From Nitrosomonas sp. (GTDB taxonomy: Bacteria; Pseudomonadota; Gammaproteobacteria; Burkholderiales; Nitrosomonadaceae), in contig JBDIVK010000012.1 of NCBI GenBank assembly GCA_039794425.1, positions 4,323-68,322 on the forward strand: DNA of 64,000 nucleotides. Direction: 5' to 3'. Positions 1,855 through 20,310 of this stretch are shown piece after piece. Under the pieces are notes generated by a model that did no database searches, was not told the origin of the DNA, and saw only the letters and a program-made list of their open reading frames with translations. A program made the position numbers and the translations under genes. Each line of letters begins with the position of its first letter. Position 1 is the first letter of the stretch.

Positions 1855-2547
1855 TCAGAGTGATAAATAATAGCGTTTAACCGGTTTCAGCAAAGTATCA
1901 AGCTCATAACAAAGCGGTTGGCCGGTTGCAATCGACAGGCGCATGGTTTGCGAGCTTGTCAGCCCTTCTAATTGCATAATCAGCGTTCTCAGAAGATTTT
2001 TATGAGAGACGATCAGTAGACGCTTGCCATGTTTTATTTCAGGAAGAATAACTTTTTGCCACGCTGGCAGTAACCGCTCCAGCGTTTGCTGCATACTTTC
2101 TGCCAAGGGTAGCTGAGAACGATCGATAGCAGCATAGCGTTGCTGGTTAACGGGCGCCCGTGGATCATCCGGTGCTAATCTTGGAGGTATGGCATCGAAT
2201 CGGATCTGGCAGTTCACTATTGACCATATACCGAACTTTCGTATAGCCGCCCAACGACGCATGCCCTCCAGCGCACCATAATGGCGTTCATTCAATCGCC
2301 AACTCTGCTGAATGGGAAGGCAGTTCAAATCCATGGCTGACAGAATAATGGCCAGGGTATCCTGAGCTCGTTTCAGTTCAGAACTGAAACAAATATCGAA
2401 AGTGAAACCAGCCTGTTTAAGTAACCGGCCTGCTCTTTTTGCTTCCTCTTCACCTTGTGGGCTGAGTGCGACATCACTCCAGCCAGTAAAATGCCTGTCA
2501 TGATTCCAGATACTTTGCCCATGACGCAGCAGTACCAACTGGATCAT
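1855..2547 (-). CDS. Cofactor-dependent phosphoglycerate mutase-like histidine phosphatase (divergent GpmA paralogue)
   Basis: LLRHGQS, FTGW and LNERHYGAL motifs, colinear with GpmA. The WRR motif and the C-terminal tail are altered or absent. Confidence 0.85.
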   Translation of the reverse strand: MIQLVLLRHGQSIWNHDRHFTGWSDVALSPQGEEEAKRAGRLLKQAGFTFDICFSSELKRAQDTLAIILSAMDLNCLPIQQSWRLNERHYGALEGMRRWAAIRKFGIWSIVNCQIRFDAIPPRLAPDDPRAPVNQQRYAAIDRSQLPLAESMQQTLERLLPAWQKVILPEIKHGKRLLIVSHKNLLRTLIMQLEGLTSSQTMRLSIATGQPLCYELDTLLKPVKRYYLSL

Positions 2548-2568
2548 TTCTGTATTTTACTCAGGAAA

Positions 2569-3660
2569 TTAATCAGTTGGGAATCGGGAATCATCTCTGC
2601 GTAATATATTATTTTTCGTTGAGGTTGCTACAGCAGCTTCCTGCCAGATCTGCCTCAGCGCATCCCATAACCCCTTGCGGCTAGTTTGCGAGATCAGCTG
2701 ATTATCACCTAATTCCCGTGCCAGACGTCTTTGCGCTTCACCAAGATTATGATAAGGCAAGCTCATAAAAAGATGATGGGTAGCATGGTAACGCAACCCA
2801 ACAGGTGCCCATAGTACGGTCAGAAAATTCCCTGGCACGTTAACGGAATCCTGATACTGTTCGACTAAAGTCAGATGATGATCACCCGGATGACGATAGG
2901 CATGTGCAGCCAGCGTACGCAACGAGTTAAGAATGAAAATCGTAACTGCGATAGCATACCAGAGTAGTAATACCTGATAGGACAACTTCCCCTGTATCAC
3001 ACCGATAACAATGACAGCTGCGAATAAAAATGCCGCAAATTCCTGTATGCGCCAGTAATGATCGTTACGAATGGCGTCCTCTTTACGAATATAAGCGGGA
3101 TTGATAGTCAGTGAGGAAGCATGTTCCCAGACAATTTTTCGTAGGGCGGGAATCAGATACGACAGCGGTGTAAGCAGCAAAAATCGTGCCACCAGCAGCA
3201 GTGGCAAAATCAAAGAAAGCAGCACATAGCGCACCAGCGCTGATGGATGCTGCGTGGCAAAAGGAAGATATTCCCCATCTTCCCGCGTGCCATAAATACC
3301 TGGTTTATGATGATCATAATGTACACCATCATAAGTAAAGGACGGGATCATGAACGGTATGCCGCATGTCACATTCCACACCAGCCGGAACAGCTTAAAG
3401 GTGCCACGCTCAAGATGAGCTAATTCATGGATGAAAATCGCAGCCCGATAAAAGGCAAATACCGCTACACAATAGGAGAGAATCTGCCAGAAGGACAACC
3501 AGGGTGTCTGCAGTACTGTAACAAAAGCTGTCCAACCAAGCAAAATATGGAAAAGAAAGTCAGCCCAGTAAATCCTCGGGTCAGGAACCATCAGGTCACG
3601 TACCAGTGCACGTGCCTCATACAAGGGAAAATCAGTCTGGGTTGTATTATCATCAGTCAT
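2569..3660 (-). CDS. Membrane-bound fatty acid desaturase family protein
   Basis: Three His boxes (HELAH, HYDHH, HATHH) plus hydrophobic segments. ATG at 3660 lies 5 bp after the HIT stop. Confidence 0.85.
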   Translation of the reverse strand: MTDDNTTQTDFPLYEARALVRDLMVPDPRIYWADFLFHILLGWTAFVTVLQTPWLSFWQILSYCVAVFAFYRAAIFIHELAHLERGTFKLFRLVWNVTCGIPFMIPSFTYDGVHYDHHKPGIYGTREDGEYLPFATQHPSALVRYVLLSLILPLLLVARFLLLTPLSYLIPALRKIVWEHASSLTINPAYIRKEDAIRNDHYWRIQEFAAFLFAAVIVIGVIQGKLSYQVLLLWYAIAVTIFILNSLRTLAAHAYRHPGDHHLTLVEQYQDSVNVPGNFLTVLWAPVGLRYHATHHLFMSLPYHNLGEAQRRLARELGDNQLISQTSRKGLWDALRQIWQEAAVATSTKNNILRRDDSRFPTD

Positions 3661-3665
3661 AATCG

Positions 3666-4115
3666 TCACGAATACTCCCAGTGACGTAGCAAATATTCGA
3701 TCACCTGCTGGTTCAAAGCTGAATCCGTTTCGTTGATTTTGCCAAAATCCGGCACACCCGGCCAACCCGCATCCCCAAATACCATACCACCGAATTGTTT
3801 AGCTTGTGCATAGCGCGGAATAACATGAAAATGAACATCAGGATCGACCATCATCAACATCAGGTAATTCAACTTATCGTACTGAAAAGCCTTTTTTAAC
3901 GCTAATTCAATCTGACCGGTTACAACTTGCAGTTCTACAAAACTGGGCGCACTCAATGCGGAAAAAGTATGCACCGGCTCATGTGCAACCAATACCAGTG
4001 CACCCAGTGTCAATTGAGCCGGGCGTAACAAAACACTCCAATGCTGAAACTGATGAATAACCGTATCAGGCGCACCGAATTTCAGCATAGTGTCATTAAA
4101 AATCTTCGGATTCAT
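3666..4115 (-). CDS. HIT family protein
   Basis: DPDVHFHVIPRY, a HIT-like motif whose first His is replaced by Asp; size about 150 aa. Confidence 0.8.
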   Translation of the reverse strand: MNPKIFNDTMLKFGAPDTVIHQFQHWSVLLRPAQLTLGALVLVAHEPVHTFSALSAPSFVELQVVTGQIELALKKAFQYDKLNYLMLMMVDPDVHFHVIPRYAQAKQFGGMVFGDAGWPGVPDFGKINETDSALNQQVIEYLLRHWEYS

Positions 4116-4128
4116 ACCGTTTCCCTAA

Positions 4129-4938
4129 TCAGCCCGGAACTCGCAGTACCGGGTCGGATAAATGCTCCTGCGCGATATCTGCCGCTTGCAAAGTAAAGTG
4201 CTTTTTTGCTTTGTGCAAATCCTGAATGTAGTCGATCTCGCACCAATGATAACCCACAACTGAATGACTGCTTACCACATCATACTTCGCCAGTGCATCA
4301 ATAATTGCCAAATACCACGATCTGAGCTTTACCGGATCACGTAATGCCTGCTCCACGGCATCGCGAAAAAGCTGTACTCCTTTACCGCAAAAACGGAGAA
4401 GGCCGATTGATTCTGCATCCGTTTCCTTGGCAGATAACTTTTTACTGACCTGCCTCACCTGACCTTGTGCACCGAGTTGCACTTTCATATCATCTTCGTC
4501 GAATACTTGTTTGAAATCAACGCACAGGGTAACTGGTGCCGCTTGCGCCCGTAATACCTCTGCCAGCAATCCATCGCCCAGTAACGTATCACCATTCAAC
4601 AGCAGAAAGCTGTTATTCATCTCTTTACGTGCGATCCAACAGCTAGCCAGGTTGTCTGCTACTTCATAAAAAGGATTGAACAAGACTTTGATGCCAGCGT
4701 ATTCATGATAACGCTCAGCCAACATCTCTTCTACTTTGCCGACCTGAAAACCAGCGATAACGATGATTTCTTCAATACCATTAGCCAGCAACGTATCGAT
4801 CTGCCAGGCAATGACAGGCTTGCCTGAAACCGGCAGCAGGCACTTGGGAGTGTTTTCGGTCAGCGGTAACAACCGCCTGCCCTGTCCCGCACTCAGGATT
4901 ATCGCTTTCCTTGGAAAATCGTCGGCTCGTTCAATCAT
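4129..4938 (-). CDS. Nucleotidyltransferase, phosphocholine cytidylyltransferase (LicC-like) family
   Basis: N-terminal LSAGQGRRLLPLTENTPKCLL signature, LLLNGD and WCEID. Confidence 0.85.
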   Translation of the reverse strand: MIERADDFPRKAIILSAGQGRRLLPLTENTPKCLLPVSGKPVIAWQIDTLLANGIEEIIVIAGFQVGKVEEMLAERYHEYAGIKVLFNPFYEVADNLASCWIARKEMNNSFLLLNGDTLLGDGLLAEVLRAQAAPVTLCVDFKQVFDEDDMKVQLGAQGQVRQVSKKLSAKETDAESIGLLRFCGKGVQLFRDAVEQALRDPVKLRSWYLAIIDALAKYDVVSSHSVVGYHWCEIDYIQDLHKAKKHFTLQAADIAQEHLSDPVLRVPG

Positions 4939-4984
4939 TTATATTTGTCCGGTTATCATTCAACTGCACGGATTTCACATGTCT

Positions 4985-6145
4985 TCATGTATTCAATACT
5001 GCACTCATACTCTTCAGTTGATCAGTGATACGCTTAACGGCTGCGAGGAACGCATCCACTTCAGCAGTAGTATTACCAACCCCGAAGCTTACCCGTACTG
5101 CACAACGCGCGAGCACGGGGGAAACACCCATTGCTTCCAACACGTGACTTTTACCAGGCGTAGCACTGGAACAGGCAGCACCACTGGCAACTGCAAATCC
5201 ATTCTTATCCAGGCGAACGACTAAGGTATCTCCTTCAATATCAGGCAACGCAAAATAACAGGTATTAGGCAAACGTGGTGCATCCAGACCAAATATCCTG
5301 GCACCCATTGCAAGCAAACCCTGTTCAAGGTGATGACGCAACCTAGCCGTATGGGCGGCCAATTCAGTCATTCTGGACATAGCAAGCTCACAAGCAGCAC
5401 CAAAACCGACGATAGCCGGTACATTCTCGGTACCCGAACGCAACCCATTTTCATGCCCTCCACCATAAATGAGCGGCTTAATCGGCAAACGCGGATCGAT
5501 AATCAAAGCCGCTGCTCCCTTGGGTCCATAAATCTTATGTGCAGACAGTGTCATAGCGTGTACGCCAAGTTCCTCAAAATTCACCGGGATTTTTCCGAAT
5601 GCCTGCACTGCATCGGTATGTACCCAAGCACCCTGCTCTTTAGCTATTCCGACAATAGTCGCAACATCCTGAACCACACCTGTTTCATTATTGGCGAGCA
5701 TGACTGAAACCAAAGCAGGATTTGCTTCTGTCAGAATATTTGCGGCCCCTTCTACCTTTATCCGACCCGATTCATCCACCATCAGATGATGTAGCTGCCA
5801 TTTTTCGTTGCGCCTTCTCATCAATTCCTGTGCAGGACGAAGAATACAGGGATGTTCGATGGTACTTATGGCCAATGCAGAAGATCTCAAACTATCCGAT
5901 ACACCACGAATAAAAAGATTGTTAGCTTCCGATCCACCACTGGTGAAAATTACTTGCGAAGGCTGAACATTTATGGCCTGGGCTACCTGCTCACGTGCAC
6001 GATTAATTGCACGACGCGCCATCAAACCAAGAGAGTGACTACTGGAAGCGTTACCATAACCTTCACGGAAATAGGGCAGCATCGCATCCAATACCCCGTC
6101 ATCTATCCTGGTAGTAGCGTTATGATCGAAGTAGGTTTGGGTCAT
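4985..6145 (-). CDS. iscS: Cysteine desulfurase (IscS/NifS group I)
   Basis: YFDHNATT, the PLP lysine in SAHKIYGPKG, GGGHENGLRSGT, and the catalytic Cys in ASGAACSS. Not flanked by other isc genes. Confidence 0.9.
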   Translation of the reverse strand: MTQTYFDHNATTRIDDGVLDAMLPYFREGYGNASSSHSLGLMARRAINRAREQVAQAINVQPSQVIFTSGGSEANNLFIRGVSDSLRSSALAISTIEHPCILRPAQELMRRRNEKWQLHHLMVDESGRIKVEGAANILTEANPALVSVMLANNETGVVQDVATIVGIAKEQGAWVHTDAVQAFGKIPVNFEELGVHAMTLSAHKIYGPKGAAALIIDPRLPIKPLIYGGGHENGLRSGTENVPAIVGFGAACELAMSRMTELAAHTARLRHHLEQGLLAMGARIFGLDAPRLPNTCYFALPDIEGDTLVVRLDKNGFAVASGAACSSATPGKSHVLEAMGVSPVLARCAVRVSFGVGNTTAEVDAFLAAVKRITDQLKSMSAVLNT

Positions 6146-6404
6146 AAAGAATTTTGACAAATAATACGCTGATGAGCGCTCGAACTTTCCGACAAACGCT
6201 AATCCAGATATGCATAAAAAGTATATGTAAATTTAAAAGTCTCGACATTATCTTTCCCAGATGCTGGCGTTGACCCAATCCATATAATTTCAATCAGTAT
6301 GCAAATATGAAAGCATACTATGATTGTCTTGCCCTGTTAATCGTTACTACCCAGACCATCGTGACAAAATAAAAATCCCGGAACTTTGTGCCTTGATCGC
6401 AATT

Positions 6405-6542
6405 ATCCTAAAAACCGCAGTTGGACGCACACTCGGATGCGTAGCAGTTTCACCTACCGGGTCGGCATGAGTGAAGGCAACAAGCTCACTATCTATCGGG
6501 ACCTCTAGAGGTTGATAAGCGATCAACTGCGGTTTTTAGGAT
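6405..6542. repeat. MITE-like inverted-repeat element, family 1 copy A
   Basis: Perfect 19-bp terminal IR ATCCTAAAAACCGCAGTTG (6405-6423) / CAACTGCGGTTTTTAGGAT (6524-6542). The interior is shared with the copy at 27078. Confidence 0.85.
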
Positions 6543-6782
6543 TATGCATTTCCTCTCTTTCCAACTATTGACACATTGCCCCTCTTTTAATCTTACTAAC
6601 CCCTGTCAGGAGACATGAAAACGGAATAAAACAAAAGAGAGTAGGTCACACCCTATTTCATACCATGATGATGCATGTTTCTAGCTCCAATGCATTGATT
6701 TGACTTGGACAAGCTTTTTATTAAAGAGTAAAATCGCCACCTTGTAAAACTGATGAATTAATTACCAAGCAGGAGAAAATAT

Positions 6783-7052
6783 ATGGCGGTAACAACCGAT
6801 CAAAAAGCACAAGTGGTGCGTGATTATCAGAGAGCGGCAGGAGATACAGGCTCACCCGAAGTACAAGTGGCGCTTTTGACAGCTCGTATTAATGATTTGA
6901 TTGATCACTTTAAGAAACATGTCAAAGATCATCACTCCCGTCGAGGGTTGCTTCGCATGGTAAGTCGGCGCCGCAAGCTACTGGACTACCTGAAATCAAA
7001 AAACAGTGATAGTTATCAAGCACTGATTGAACGCCTTGGTTTGAGAAAATAA
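6783..7052 (+). CDS. rpsO: 30S ribosomal protein S15
   Basis: [13 protein letters not shown] and [20 protein letters not shown]; AGGAG RBS. Confidence 0.98.
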
Positions 7053-7247
7053 AAAGAGAAAGCCAAACAGTTCGCACATTTCGGGTCATTGCGGATGACG
7101 ACTATAAGAATAAAACAGTGTATTACCCCAGAAAACTGATGTGTACTTCAGCTATCAGTGTTTAACTCTGAGATAAATTCCAGTTTTCCGCGACAATGCG
7201 ACGTTTGCAGTAAGTCTTAGGCATGATTTGATGAGAAGGATTATTAA

Positions 7248-9566: not shown

Positions 9567-10298
9567 ATGCAGATAATTTCGGCACCTGATCTCGCTTTGC
9601 TGTCGCCCCATCAGCGGGCAACTATGTACCAGGCAGGAAAAGAGGTCATGGAGTGTTACCGCGTATTACGCAAAGTTGGATTCAATATCGTAGGAGAAAT
9701 ATTACGTGACACGTTCAATGCTGGCAAACCCTTCTATGAGCTTGAACATTATCCACCTGATGATGTTTATGATACGCAAACCCATGCACAATATTACTAT
9801 CATGCCCATCGCAGTAAAATCAAAGAGCATGGCCACTTCCATACCTTCCTGCGACCACGCGGTATGCCTGCGGGGGTATCACCTATAGACTTTCCGGCAA
9901 CTGATCCTTGGCCGCAAGGTAACGAGGCAGTCTCGCATCTGTTCGCCATCGCCATGGATGCGTATGGCTATCCAACCGGCTTATTCACTGTCAACCGTTG
10001 GGTAACGGCCGAAGCATGGTACCCTGCCGACCAAGTCATACGTATGCTGGACCATTTTATAGTTGACCATGCTTTCCCCTCATGGCCAGTCAACCGCTGG
10101 ATCAGTGCAATGGCTGTCCTCTACCGACCGCATATCGAAGCATTACTGCGACAACGGGATGAAGTAATATGGGAATCTTTCAGAAAGAGGCCGGGACAGG
10201 ATATTTTTGAGGATCGTTCACTCGATATTACCAGTTATTTACCTATTTCTGTCGATACCCTGATAATGGAGCTCGAGCATCTGATTGATCCTGGATGA
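9567..10298 (+). CDS. Conserved hypothetical His-rich protein (DUF6969-like)
   Basis: YYYHAHR and EHGHFHTF motifs. The family name is recalled and not verified. Confidence 0.55.
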   Translation: MQIISAPDLALLSPHQRATMYQAGKEVMECYRVLRKVGFNIVGEILRDTFNAGKPFYELEHYPPDDVYDTQTHAQYYYHAHRSKIKEHGHFHTFLRPRGMPAGVSPIDFPATDPWPQGNEAVSHLFAIAMDAYGYPTGLFTVNRWVTAEAWYPADQVIRMLDHFIVDHAFPSWPVNRWISAMAVLYRPHIEALLRQRDEVIWESFRKRPGQDIFEDRSLDITSYLPISVDTLIMELEHLIDPG

Positions 10299-10332
10299 TT
10301 CGTATCAACTATTTGATCGTTTTACCCATCGT

Positions 10333-10674
10333 ATGAAAAAGCTTTATACGGCCAACCATCTCCTGGAAGCGCAGCTCGTCCTCGACCTTCTGGAAAACGC
10401 GTATATTCCGGCCAAATTGTTTAACGTACACGCACAAGGGGGAGTGGGTGAAATTCCGTTTACCCATGCCTATCCGGAAGTATGGGTCGTGCGTGATCAG
10501 GATTTCGAACGTGGACGGGCAATCATTATTGCTTATGAGCAAACTCCCCCTGTCACCCATATCCTTACTTGCCCAGAATGTGGCGAAGAAAATCCTTATA
10601 ACTTCCAACTATGCTGGCAATGCGGCAGCGGGCTGGAAGTCATCAAGGAAAACATCCAATACCCCGACACCTGA
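10333..10674 (+). CDS. DUF2007 (PII-like putative signal transducing) protein with C-terminal zinc ribbon
   Basis: MKKLYTANHLLEAQLVLDLLE...GEIPF...PEVWV, followed by CPECG...CWQCG. Confidence 0.75.
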   Translation: MKKLYTANHLLEAQLVLDLLENAYIPAKLFNVHAQGGVGEIPFTHAYPEVWVVRDQDFERGRAIIIAYEQTPPVTHILTCPECGEENPYNFQLCWQCGSGLEVIKENIQYPDT

Positions 10675-10798
10675 AAATTATGCTGCAAACTATTATGACA
10701 AATGCCTTCCCGGCTTTAATCTACCGATAGATTAGGAGTATAGATCGAACGCTTAACAAAACCGCGTATTCATCGACGACTTACCTTGAGCATGCACA

Positions 10799-11860
10799 TC
10801 AACCAGGCTCGATCGGCAGATTCTGCAAACCATAAGCAGTATTCCGGGGGTTATAAGTAAAAAGACTTTCTCCATCACGTTTGACGACACTCTCATGCAT
10901 CATTTCGTTGATACCGGCCTTATCAGCGCCGATATCTTCATGTAATTGCCCGATAGGTCTTAAATAAGCACCAAATATCTTATAAGCCGAAGAGTAAGAA
11001 TCGACTAACTGACCACGATAATTCTCCTGCAGCTTTTTCGGGTCGCTTAAATAAGTCTGATCGAATTCAAGCCCTCTCAGTTCGGCTTTTTTGAGCATCC
11101 ATACCAAGGCTGTATCAGATAACCCTGCATCTTTATATCCCCCACCGACATTCGAATGGGCACCAGAAAACCAAACCTGCTTCATTTCCTTACAATCATT
11201 AACCTTAGTCCAAATGCTGGGCCGGAATGGCTCGCGACGTTCATCTACTGCTAACGCATGATATGCATAATCAGCATTACGTAATTCTGTATCATGAAAA
11301 CTTACCCACAATTTGCGGCTTATCCAACCCAGTAGAGGAGTCGGTGCTCCTAATGCACCTACAGTATCCCAGACACCGATAAACTTGAAGCGAGGTGTAA
11401 TGGCTCGGGCTTTCAACGTCTCAACCCTCGCAAAGTTTTTATGATGAGGGCGCTTGGCTGGTGATTCCCGATACAGATCGTATAACAGGTCGAGTTGTCC
11501 CAGTTCCTGCTCGGCAAGTAACCCGAAACTGGTTACAAAACCGACAAAAGAGCGAACAGTATAAGCACCGCGACTGAAGCCAAAACAGTAAATCTCATCA
11601 CCTTGCTGGTAGTGCCGAGCAAGAAACTGATAACAATCCTTGATATTTCTCGAAATCCCCATACCGGTAGCCCCTCCGATATATTTATCGATGAAACCAC
11701 CATTAGTACCAATACCTTGGTCATAAAATACCAGCTGTTGTACTTGTCGGGAATCAATCGGCAGGAGTGCTTCTTTCAACTTACAAACATTGGTCGGTAT
11801 GACTTGATCGAGAGTATTCCAAGTCCCATCGCATAAAATCACTATTTTTTTGCCGCTCAT
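10799..11860 (-). CDS. DUF2235 alpha/beta hydrolase (Tle1-like phospholipase domain)
   Basis: ILCDGTWN, the nucleophile elbow GFSRGAY, GVWDTVG, and WFSGAHSNVGGGY. Confidence 0.85.
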   Translation of the reverse strand: MSGKKIVILCDGTWNTLDQVIPTNVCKLKEALLPIDSRQVQQLVFYDQGIGTNGGFIDKYIGGATGMGISRNIKDCYQFLARHYQQGDEIYCFGFSRGAYTVRSFVGFVTSFGLLAEQELGQLDLLYDLYRESPAKRPHHKNFARVETLKARAITPRFKFIGVWDTVGALGAPTPLLGWISRKLWVSFHDTELRNADYAYHALAVDERREPFRPSIWTKVNDCKEMKQVWFSGAHSNVGGGYKDAGLSDTALVWMLKKAELRGLEFDQTYLSDPKKLQENYRGQLVDSYSSAYKIFGAYLRPIGQLHEDIGADKAGINEMMHESVVKRDGESLFTYNPRNTAYGLQNLPIEPG

Positions 11861-19236: not shown

Positions 19237-20310
19237 TCAGAATCCGTAACCGATATTGAAAAGATAACGTGTATCGAATTTTTCTTTATCCGGTGCCGGT
19301 TTGCTGAAGTAATCCACTTGTACTTCATTGGAAAACTGGAATCCACGCCACAAGGGTATGCGGAAGCCTGTACGGGTACGAATAAAAAGATCGCTCGTCG
19401 CCAACCCCTCATTCGTATGGAAAAGCTGTATGGCACGATTCCAGAGCCATTGGTCGTATCGGGTCAGCCAGCGACCTGCTACATTACGCCTGTCCTGGAT
19501 CTTGTCACATGCAGCAGGATCGGATGAAAGCCTGGTTTCACATCGGTATGGACGATCATAAAAAGCAACGCTAACATAATCGGGACCAGCCTCGATAGAT
19601 AAATTAAGCCCCCCTGTCGCAAAAATCTGGTAACCAACACCAATACCAAGAGCGGATCTTAATTTGATATCCTGCAGACGATCATTGGTAAAGAGGCTAT
19701 GTACATAGCCGTACCACTGATCATTAAAAAAATGTGAGTAGTCGGCATAAAGCTGAAAATTACGTGCATTAAGCACGTTATTTCTCCTGCCATCCGCATC
19801 TCTCCTCGTATTATTCGCGTAGTTGAACTGACTACCGAAAGAAACCCGGTCATCTTGTCCTCGGACTACGATATCAGTACTCAAATTATAGGATTGGCGC
19901 TCCGTGTTCCCATCAAAAACGGCTCCCCCTACATTTACTTGGCCAGAAAAGAATTTTTTGTTGATTTCCGTGACTTCAGATAGCGGGATCGGCTCTGATT
20001 GATGGATACCATCCTTTTTGATCGTCAGCATATTATCGGGAGAAGTTTCAATCACACCCGTCACTTCTTCTTTGTTTTTAAGCGTCAGCAATACAGCTTG
20101 ATTCGTTTTAATGCTCTCAATCGCGCTCCATTTAATCAAAATCTTGCTTGAGTATTCAGTTTTTATTTCAAGGGTATTACCAAATTTATTGATAATCGTT
20201 CCTGTAATTCTGTCCCCGTTTTTCAACAAAATCTCATCCGCCTTCACAGTCAGCACAAAAAAAGCAAGCAAAACAAATAGCGCGATCAATGATTTCTGGC
20301 TCATTCCCAT
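19237..20310 (-). CDS. DUF481 (YdiY-like) outer-membrane beta-barrel protein
   Basis: Signal peptide, DEILLKNGDRITG N-domain, amphipathic strands, and a C-terminal aromatic residue (IGYGF). Confidence 0.75.
   Translation of the reverse strand: MGMSQKSLIALFVLLAFFVLTVKADEILLKNGDRITGTIINKFGNTLEIKTEYSSKILIKWSAIESIKTNQAVLLTLKNKEEVTGVIETSPDNMLTIKKDGIHQSEPIPLSEVTEINKKFFSGQVNVGGAVFDGNTERQSYNLSTDIVVRGQDDRVSFGSQFNYANNTRRDADGRRNNVLNARNFQLYADYSHFFNDQWYGYVHSLFTNDRLQDIKLRSALGIGVGYQIFATGGLNLSIEAGPDYVSVAFYDRPYRCETRLSSDPAACDKIQDRRNVAGRWLTRYDQWLWNRAIQLFHTNEGLATSDLFIRTRTGFRIPLWRGFQFSNEVQVDYFSKPAPDKEKFDTRYLFNIGYGF

Follow-up and report, generated by a model that had tools for sequence, protein, structure and literature searches.

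A nucleotidyltransferase, HIT, desaturase and mutase-like gene cluster of Nitrosomonas as a probable part of a phosphoglycerate-headed sphingolipid pathway

The stretch of DNA considered here (the window) covers 64,000 nucleotides of a Nitrosomonas sp. genome (GenBank assembly GCA_039794425.1, contig JBDIVK010000012.1, positions 4,323 to 68,322) and contains five adjacent genes encoding a cysteine desulfurase, a nucleotidyltransferase, a HIT protein, a membrane desaturase and a paralog of the cofactor-dependent phosphoglycerate mutase (dPGM), here called gpm2. An earlier interpretation made from the letters of the window (the sequence-only reading) regarded all five as one lipid head-group module of the sphingolipid type. 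Four of them are predicted to belong to a pathway for anionic, phosphoglycerate-headed sphingolipids that had itself already been predicted.

Organization of the locus

Gene families were assigned with Pfam and NCBIfam, and the features of the locus, all on the minus strand, are the following:

4985-6160 (ATG at 6145), minus strand: NifS/IscS-type cysteine desulfurase (PF00266, Aminotran_5)
4129-4938, minus strand: CpgD-type CTP:phosphoglycerate cytidylyltransferase, a predicted CDP-glycerate synthase, 269 aa (PF00483 and PF12804)
3666-4115, minus strand: CC_1157-type HIT protein, 149 aa (weak PF01230)
2569-3660, minus strand: FA_desaturase-family membrane His-box enzyme, a predicted ceramide desaturase or N-acyl hydroxylase, 363 aa (PF00487)
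1855-2547, minus strand: accessory dPGM paralog gpm2, 230 aa (His_Phos_1, TIGR01258)
6312-6340, minus strand: weak sigma-70-like promoter match (TTAACA-17-TATGCT, 9/12 matches)

The intergenic gaps, computed from the coordinates of the open reading frame (ORF) listing, are 46, 13, 5 and 21 bp, exactly as in the sequence-only reading. For the desaturase the ATG start is used; a TTG-extended ORF reaching 3765 would overlap the HIT gene. No terminator-like sites were found between the five genes, and the sole promoter-like site on the minus strand upstream of the five-gene unit lies at 6340-6312, matches of this kind being rarer than in shuffled sequence; this site is only a weak pointer. The order of the five genes is shared with all six other Nitrosomonas genomes examined and with N. 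eutropha, so that the gene order proved to be conserved. The flanking serS and pnp are replaced in five of those six genomes. The arrangement is not a matter of chance.

Relation to the Caulobacter pathway

In Caulobacter, genetic work has established that cpgB and cpgC make ceramide phosphoglycerate (CPG), while cpgA and cpgD add a second phosphoglycerate to give CPG2. CpgD (CC_1152, CCNA_01210) is a CTP:phosphoglycerate cytidylyltransferase that makes CDP-glycerate, with a preference for D-2-phosphoglycerate (Dhakephalkar 2025; PMC12275187). Its crystal structures have been described, together with a Km of 0.8 mM for D-2-phosphoglycerate (D-2-PG) against 10.9 mM for 3-phosphoglycerate (3-PG) (bioRxiv 10.64898/2026.05.18.725363). 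The orthologs of the Caulobacter sphingolipid locus in N. eutropha C91 have been tabulated (S2D Table of Olea-Ozuna 2024; PMC11324152) and fall into three regions: aasR/cerR/acpR/spt correspond to Neut_0458-0461; cerS, a CC_1153-like gene, lptF2/G2, cpgA, cpgB and cpgC correspond to Neut_1100-1106; and the third region holds Neut_0267, the counterpart of the HIT protein CC_1157 (44% identity), and Neut_0268, the counterpart of CpgD (44% identity, 93% coverage, 5e-62). The synthesis of CPG and CPG2 was predicted for Nitrosomonas in the same work.

By exact-sequence look-up, the HIT protein and the nucleotidyltransferase of the N. eutropha cluster are ABI58551.1 and ABI58552.1, the accessions given for Neut_0267 and Neut_0268, and thus published work had already connected two of the five genes with the CPG2 pathway. 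The suggestion of an undescribed membrane-lipid pathway is therefore not borne out. The remaining members of the N. eutropha cluster are the desaturase ABI58550.1, the mutase paralog ABI58549.1 and the desulfurase ABI58553.1; these three genes are not discussed in PMC11324152, where the HIT gene is called probably unrelated. The window proteins share 72-80% identity with their counterparts Neut_0265-0269, the nucleotidyltransferase being 72% identical to Neut_0268 and the HIT protein 75% identical to Neut_0267.

The other genes of the pathway are encoded elsewhere in the same genome (G000), as found with the proteins of alphaproteobacterial spt/cpgA clusters as queries. One region (C1:208824-213265) contains spt (49-54% identity), acpR, cerR and aasR, and another (C8:11723-19192) contains cpgC-like, cpgB, cpgA, lptG2, lptF2, a MobA-like nucleotidyltransferase (CC_1153-like) and a bCerS-like gene, with Pfam matches to Aminotran_1_2, PP-binding, Epimerase, DAGK_cat, CDP-OH_P_transf and NTP_transf_3 across the two regions. 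The sequence-only reading had correctly placed spt and the CDP-alcohol transferase outside the window, and the sphingolipid genes that it asked after are present. The cpgC-like protein (G000:C8:11723-12703) was found by tblastn, is 35% identical to its alphaproteobacterial homologs and matches no Pfam model.

With the CPG2 pathway of Caulobacter crescentus (Zik 2022; PMC11324152; PMC12275187) the Nitrosomonas genes share the nucleotidyltransferase family with its conserved CTP and glycerate contacts, the HIT subfamily and the genomic partners cpgA/B/C, CC_1153-like, lptF2/G2, bCerS and spt/acpR/cerR/aasR. In contrast to Caulobacter, the pathway genes of Nitrosomonas are split over three regions; CpgD and HIT lie side by side, together with a desaturase and a dPGM paralog that are absent from the Caulobacter locus; no ortholog of the metallophosphoesterase CC_1158 has been reported for Nitrosomonas; and the HIT protein, treated as unrelated in Caulobacter, is here strictly co-inherited with cpgD and cpgA. 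Adjacent HIT and CpgD genes are also found in Sphingomonas wittichii (Swit_1306-1309, namely CC_1153, cpgA, HIT and cpgD), whose block, unlike that of the window, includes cpgA and the CofC-like nucleotidyltransferase and has neither a dPGM paralog nor a desaturase.

A glycosyltransferase of the ArnT/PMT_2 type lies beside the spt operon (G000:C1:205566-207029) and also adjoins the HIT cluster in two other genera of the family, g19 and g20 (L033:10763-13357; L037:3466-4884; L038:11352-12779), the g19 copy being fused to GT2 and GtrA domains. This enzyme may glycosylate a lipid of the sphingolipid pathway.

The nucleotidyltransferase and the HIT protein

The nucleotidyltransferase matches PF00483 (E 2e-14) and carries the nucleotide loop G-x-G-x-R as LSAGQGRRL, with G18 and R22 on invariant columns, while all NCBIfam equivalog scores lie far under their cut-offs. 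It is 44-46% identical to nucleotidyltransferase genes within alphaproteobacterial spt/cpgA clusters and, conversely, the Phenylobacterium enzyme from a cluster with the Caulobacter gene order matches solely the window nucleotidyltransferase in this genome (45% identity, 2.5e-51). In the CpgD structures, CTP and glycerate are contacted by G12, R16, N90, T93, N110, G111, M147, K161, S170 and W201 (bioRxiv 10.64898/2026.05.18.725363). The equivalents in the window protein are G18, R22, N96, S99, N115, G116, M151, K166, S177 and W208, on invariant columns (with S or T at the T93 column) in an alignment of seq­uences from Phenylobacterium, Sphingopyxis and five Nitrosomonadaceae, seven in all. The sequence-only reading left the grouping of this enzyme to be decided between CpgD, sugar-phosphate enzymes and LicC; by orthology to Neut_0268 and by the conserved contacts it is, as far as sequence can tell, of the CpgD type, and neither a sugar-phosphate enzyme nor LicC.

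The HIT protein shows a weak Pfam match (PF01230, E 1e-3), and its best match in the Protein Data Bank (PDB) is 2oik. Its motif, D-V-H-F-H-V-I, retains the histidines that serve as nucleophile and acid but has Asp in place of the first histidine of the triad; across 15 members of the subfamily VHFHVIPR is kept, the first triad position is variable, and the subfamily motif reads NYLMLMMVDPxVHFHVIPRY. Outside the family Nitrosomonadaceae the subfamily is found in only four of 398 genomes taken as an even sample of the phylum. Three of the four are alphaproteobacteria (Sphingopyxis, Phenylobacterium and one other) in which the HIT gene (50-54% identity) lies inside an spt/cpgA/lptFG2 cluster, in two of them near a nucleotidyltransferase 44-46% identical to that of the window. 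In the fourth, the gammaproteobacterium G193, HIT is fused to a TagD-like CTP_transf_like domain, beside a CDP-glycerol glycerophosphotransferase. No gpm2-like gene was found near HIT or CpgD in these four genomes. An exhaustive representative search returned 417 representatives of the HIT subfamily at E <= 1e-10, among them further fusions of HIT with a cytidylyltransferase, such as P0153, P0225 and P0126. The presence of HIT in spt/cpgA clusters on one side and its fusion to cytidylyltransferases on the other link the subfamily to CDP-alcohol chemistry in two independent contexts, which argues against an unrelated function.

In G193 the fused gene is divergent from that for the CDP-glycerol:poly(glycerophosphate) glycerophosphotransferase, and at a distance of 9 kb there is another cytidylyltransferase, a stand-alone one (L032: 9351-10214, minus strand; 10297-11361, plus strand; 19483-19917, minus strand).

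Co-inheritance in the Nitrosomonadaceae

Of 151 Nitrosomonadaceae genomes, 127 encode a member of the HIT subfamily; genus g18 is wholly without one, as are scattered members of two other genera, so that the losses of the HIT branch fall in three genera. The distribution of the other genes was determined in 41 genomes of the family, 20 HIT-positive and 21 HIT-negative:

CpgD-type nucleotidyltransferase: 20/20 HIT-positive, 0/21 HIT-negative
cpgA: 20/20 HIT-positive, 1/21 HIT-negative (the one being a 79%-complete metagenome-assembled genome)
dPGM paralog gpm2 (identity class at least 56%): 20/20 HIT-positive, 5/21 HIT-negative
desaturase: 20/20 HIT-positive, 17/21 HIT-negative
spt: 20/20 HIT-positive, 18/21 HIT-negative
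desulfurase: 18/20 HIT-positive, 20/21 HIT-negative

Fisher tests against HIT gave p values of 4e-12 for the nucleotidyltransferase, 8e-11 for cpgA and 2e-7 for gpm2, values that overstate independence owing to the kinship of the genomes, and no signal among the 41 genomes for the desaturase, spt or the desulfurase. The co-occurrence with spt, suggested as a check on the sphingolipid link, is thus complete among the HIT-positive genomes.

The gene orders agree with this picture, in that the nucleotidyltransferase, HIT and gpm2 stay together in two different orders and the desaturase and desulfurase do not. The order in g20 is NTP-HIT-desaturase-gpm2 (NTP, nucleotidyltransferase), with the desulfurase not included. 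In g19 it is NTP-GT2-gpm2-HIT; this group lies 3-16 kb away from cpgA, next to genes for NeuB and CMP-sugar synthetase, and the desaturase is located elsewhere, after rmlBAC. In one such genome (G068, L033:620-6359) the neighbors of the CpgD-type gene are NeuB, a CMP-sugar cytidylyltransferase (CTP_transf_3), a GT2 and two oxidoreductases. In g18 the order is rmlBA-desaturase-gpm2, with neither HIT nor nucleotidyltransferase (e.g., G063, L035:8045-9904).

Genus g18, with genomes of about 1.0-2.2 Mb, has HIT, the CpgD-type nucleotidyltransferase and cpgA in none of 13 sampled genomes, and spt in 11 of the 13; in these organisms the pathway is predicted to end with ceramide or CPG. In a complete small g20 genome (G054), all that is left of HIT is a fragment of 37 residues containing a stop codon (L037:7585-7695); the desaturase, spt and a cpgC-like gene are still encoded there, whereas the nucleotidyltransferase, gpm2 and cpgA have disappeared. 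To judge from this gene content, G054 shows the CPG2 branch midway through natural decay, and its pattern of loss agrees with Caulobacter genetics, in which the steps leading to CPG and the attachment of the second phosphoglycerate are separate.

The phosphoglycerate mutase paralog

The product of gpm2 scores 264 bits with TIGR01258 and 276 bits with the GpmA equivalog model, under its cut-off of 305. It is accessory, the housekeeping gpmA, 45% identical, being a separate gene (G000:C4:20002-20682); such a second gpmA (44-49% identity) is present in 41/41 genomes of the family sample. The protein aligns over its full length with GpmA of Burkholderia pseudomallei and Escherichia coli (E 1e-67 to 1e-69, 45-48% identity) and shares with GpmA and the dPGM-like phosphatases of the histidine phosphatase superfamily the Arg-His...Glu...His core, the catalytic residues R8, H9, N15, R60, E87 and H182 all being kept. 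Unlike in GpmA, two other sites are changed throughout the clade: in 8/8 orthologs WRRSY has become [CT]-Q-[IL]-x-F, so that the equivalents of R116 and R117 are Q and I/L, and HGN has become H-[KRQ]-[NHG], whereas the housekeeping paralog and B. pseudomallei GpmA retain both WRRSY and HGN. In human bisphosphoglycerate mutase, the residues Arg116, Arg117, Arg100 and Asn190 fix bound 3-PG or 2-phosphoglycerate (2-PG) by its phosphoryl group (PMC8972806). The retention of the phosphohistidine core together with the loss of the distal anion site points to a changed substrate and makes a classical mutase activity doubtful.

The sequence-only reading had left open whether the mutase-like enzyme supplies or trims a small phosphorylated metabolite. 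As the distal phosphate arginines are lost, the supply of 2-PG appears less likely than trimming, and a phosphatase or phosphotransferase acting on a phosphoglycerate-type ester would be the more likely function. A true mutase, delivering to CpgD its preferred substrate, 2-phospho-D-glycerate, from the 3-PG of the Calvin cycle, is the less favored possibility, to which we give roughly one chance in three or a little under. It would account for the close full-length similarity to genuine GpmA, for the TIGR01258 model being passed and for the intact catalytic residues, and it would fit the Km values of CpgD (0.8 against 10.9 mM) and the cofitness of Caulobacter cpgD mutants with gluconeogenesis genes (PMC11324152); against it stand the replacement of Arg116/Arg117 by Gln and Ile/Leu in all eight orthologs, the altered HGN and the housekeeping gpmA, which already makes 2-PG in every genome of the sample.

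The desaturase

The histidine boxes of the desaturase (HELAH, HYDHH and HATHH) are invariant in 10/10 aligned sequences, and the gene is the sole member of the FA_desaturase family in its genome. In the 398-genome sample, 16 genomes encode members of the subfamily (36-45% identity, E 1e-62 to 1e-75), and nothing else reaches E 1e-20; 13 of the 16 are Sphingomonadaceae, the rest being Phenylobacterium, one other alphaproteobacterium and one gammaproteobacterium. In Sphingomonadaceae the gene is divergently adjacent to a bCerS homolog, with a median gap of 235 bp, in 7/7 sampled loci and in 64/80 named loci; furthermore, 37/80 of the named loci have a cpgB-like kinase no more than 4 kb away, and three of the seven sampled ones have spt and cerR no more than 8 kb away. 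From this linkage to the ceramide synthase it is inferred that the desaturase modifies ceramide. As first proposed, it may act on the sphingolipid, but the gene follows the ceramide core (spt, bCerS) and not the CDP-glycerate head-group genes, being retained in 17/21 Nitrosomonadaceae genomes lacking HIT and CpgD.

In Caulobacter, CC_0202 (CCNA_00202), a member of the DesA family, hydroxylates the N-acyl chain of the sphingolipid (cited in PMC11324152). Like the window desaturase, CC_0202 is a His-box membrane enzyme with a link to sphingolipids whose gene lies apart from the spt locus, and Phenylobacterium, also of the Caulobacteraceae, has at such a separate site a homolog 36-37% identical to the window enzyme. 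Orthology of the window desaturase to CC_0202 is plausible; in a search for Caulobacteraceae homologs, only Phenylobacterium proteins were among the best 120 matches.

The genome G370, 2.1 Mb in size and of the same class, has a desaturase homolog between rmlA and a cpgB-like lipid kinase of 28% identity (L059:9565-11333).

The cysteine desulfurase and the flanking genes

The desulfurase scores 392 bits with the NifS model, under its cut-off of 531, and is the sole NifS/IscS-type gene in its genome. It adjoins the module only in Nitrosomonas (genus g1), lies far from HIT in g18, g19 and g20, and is absent from two complete HIT-positive g20 genomes. As it is present irrespective of HIT and CpgD and is unlinked in three other genera, it is judged to be a housekeeping neighbor and not a member of the lipid module. 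The five-gene module first proposed consequently stands as a sphingolipid-type head-group module, reduced to a unit of four genes. A role of the desulfurase in feeding sulfur into the product, as a thio-sugar or thio-lipid, was considered and rejected, the gene being family-wide, the only one of its type and unlinked outside the genus.

Within the window the cluster stands between two flanks, one with serS and a DUF6781 gene and the other with rpsO-pnp. The DUF6781 protein (E 2e-44) is encoded at 1106-1810 on the plus strand, between serS and the cluster, and in N. eutropha and in one further genome, too, the serS-DUF6781 pair adjoins the cluster. The 1.1 kb separating the desulfurase from pnp (6161-7247) hold rpsO (6783-7052, Ribosomal_S15), and some 600 bp of this stretch are non-coding and richer in AT (GC 0.42).

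Proposed pathway and alternative readings

Taken together, the nucleotidyltransferase, HIT and gpm2 probably form the soluble half of the branch that adds the second phosphoglycerate (CPG to CPG2), of the Caulobacter type, with the desaturase modifying ceramide. In this scheme the CpgD-type enzyme would convert CTP and 2-phospho-D-glycerate into CDP-glycerate, as expected from its orthology and conserved contacts, the activity itself having been shown for Caulobacter CpgD only. CpgA, the CDP-alcohol phosphotransferase encoded on another contig, would then move phosphoglycerate onto ceramide phosphoglycerate, in keeping with the published model. The HIT protein may attack the alpha-phosphate of CDP-glycerate-type nucleotides, removing by hydrolysis or phosphorolysis any wrong isomers or surplus donor; gpm2 may remove or move phosphate on a phosphoglycerate-type ester rather than interconvert free 3-PG and 2-PG; and the His-box enzyme, given its linkage to ceramide synthase, would desaturate or hydroxylate ceramide.

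A bolder version, which we hold only tentatively and consider less likely than not as a whole, is that the CPG2 branch contains two steps missing from the Caulobacter model, namely a phosphatase or phosphotransferase step by gpm2 and an editing of the CDP-glycerate pool by HIT. By analogy with the logic of phosphatidylglycerophosphate phosphatase, gpm2 might act on a phosphoglycerate-terminated intermediate, and it would replace in the Nitrosomonadaceae the missing metallophosphoesterase CC_1158. CpgD also accepts L-2-PG and 3-PG, so that wrong isomers would need to be removed, hence the editing by HIT; CDP-glycerol systems would be served by this HIT subfamily as well, there in fusion with TagD-like cytidylyltransferases.

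Several observations weigh against the assignment of the cluster to the CPG2 branch. Caulobacter mutants in the HIT gene CC_1157 show no cofitness with the cluster, and its authors considered the gene probably unrelated (PMC11324152). Five of the 13 g18 genomes keep gpm2 beside the desaturase with no nucleotidyltransferase, HIT or cpgA, and hence gpm2 is not strictly tied to CpgD. In g19 the nucleotidyltransferase, gpm2 and HIT stand in a nonulosonic-acid and glycosyltransferase context, and CDP-glycerate might also feed a glycan there. The CpgD residues were mapped by residue order, with offsets of -2 to +1, in the Phenylobacterium homolog and not in the C. crescentus sequence. The Tam41_Mmp37 Pfam model misses the cpgC-like gene, an uninformative result in itself, as none of 14 control genomes yields a match to that model; the published Tam41 assignment accordingly rests on weak similarity. 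Finally, no lipidomics of Nitrosomonas was found in the literature searched.

Two other readings of the locus have little probability. One takes the nucleotidyltransferase for a LicC-type cytidylyltransferase of phosphocholine or another phospho-alcohol, decorating lipopolysaccharide or a glycan, with a merely coincidental link to sphingolipids. The best solved structure for the enzyme is indeed Streptococcus pneumoniae LicC (PDB 1jyk, E 1e-18), the N. eutropha ortholog bears the NCBI name 'phosphocholine cytidylyltransferase family protein', and the g19 copy adjoins NeuB, CMP-sugar synthetase and GT2 genes. However, the likeness to LicC concerns the fold and the N-terminal nucleotide-binding region: the match spans query residues 10-121, that is, the N-terminal 112 residues, leaving the substrate-specific C-terminal half unaligned, and it is in this half that the CpgD-specific contacts (M, K, S and W) are invariant. 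Partner genes and genomic context differ as well. The presence of the enzyme agrees with that of cpgA in 40/41 Nitrosomonadaceae genomes and its homologs at 44-46% identity lie inside spt clusters; no lic genes are found in the operon, the statement being limited to the operon, as no genome-wide search for licA or licD was made. We regard this reading as very unlikely.

Hardly more probable is an operon of unrelated housekeeping functions (Fe-S, glycolysis, nucleotide hydrolysis and desaturation) held together by synteny at the level of the genus. This holds true for the desulfurase, and it would suit the generic annotations in public records and the persistence of the desaturase and gpm2 in some genomes lacking HIT and the nucleotidyltransferase. 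It does not explain the clustering of the nucleotidyltransferase, HIT and gpm2 in two gene orders in different genera, nor their loss along with cpgA; moreover, the desaturase subfamily is limited to taxa whose examined genomes or loci carry spt or bCerS and abuts bCerS in Sphingomonadaceae, and the universal gpmA is a different gene from gpm2. A pathway for phosphonates such as aminoethylphosphonate, or for compatible solutes (di-myo-inositol phosphate, glucosylglycerate), was also considered; there is no phosphoenolpyruvate mutase or glycosyltransferase partner, PhnW-type scores are negligible, and this candidate was rejected because of the strong link to cpgA and spt.

Significance

With respect to the published pathway, what is new is the strictly shared inheritance of HIT, cpgD and cpgA, the occurrence of the HIT subfamily in fusions with cytidylyltransferases, the linkage of a desaturase subfamily to bCerS, the existence of lineages that have lost the CPG2 branch and an accessory dPGM paralog with a remodelled active site. 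Public annotations of these genes as 'phosphocholine cytidylyltransferase/choline kinase', 'Ap4A hydrolase' and 'phosphoglycerate mutase' are corrected accordingly.

Betaproteobacterial ammonia oxidizers drive nitrification in soils and wastewater plants, and no analysis of their predicted anionic sphingolipids was found in the literature searched. The lineages in which spt is kept and cpgD, HIT and cpgA are lost, comprising one whole genus and several Nitrosospira-like or small-genome lineages, represent natural 'knock-outs' of the branch. The cluster itself offers candidates for steps of CPG2 synthesis, namely the role of the HIT protein, a possible phosphatase step and a ceramide-modifying enzyme.

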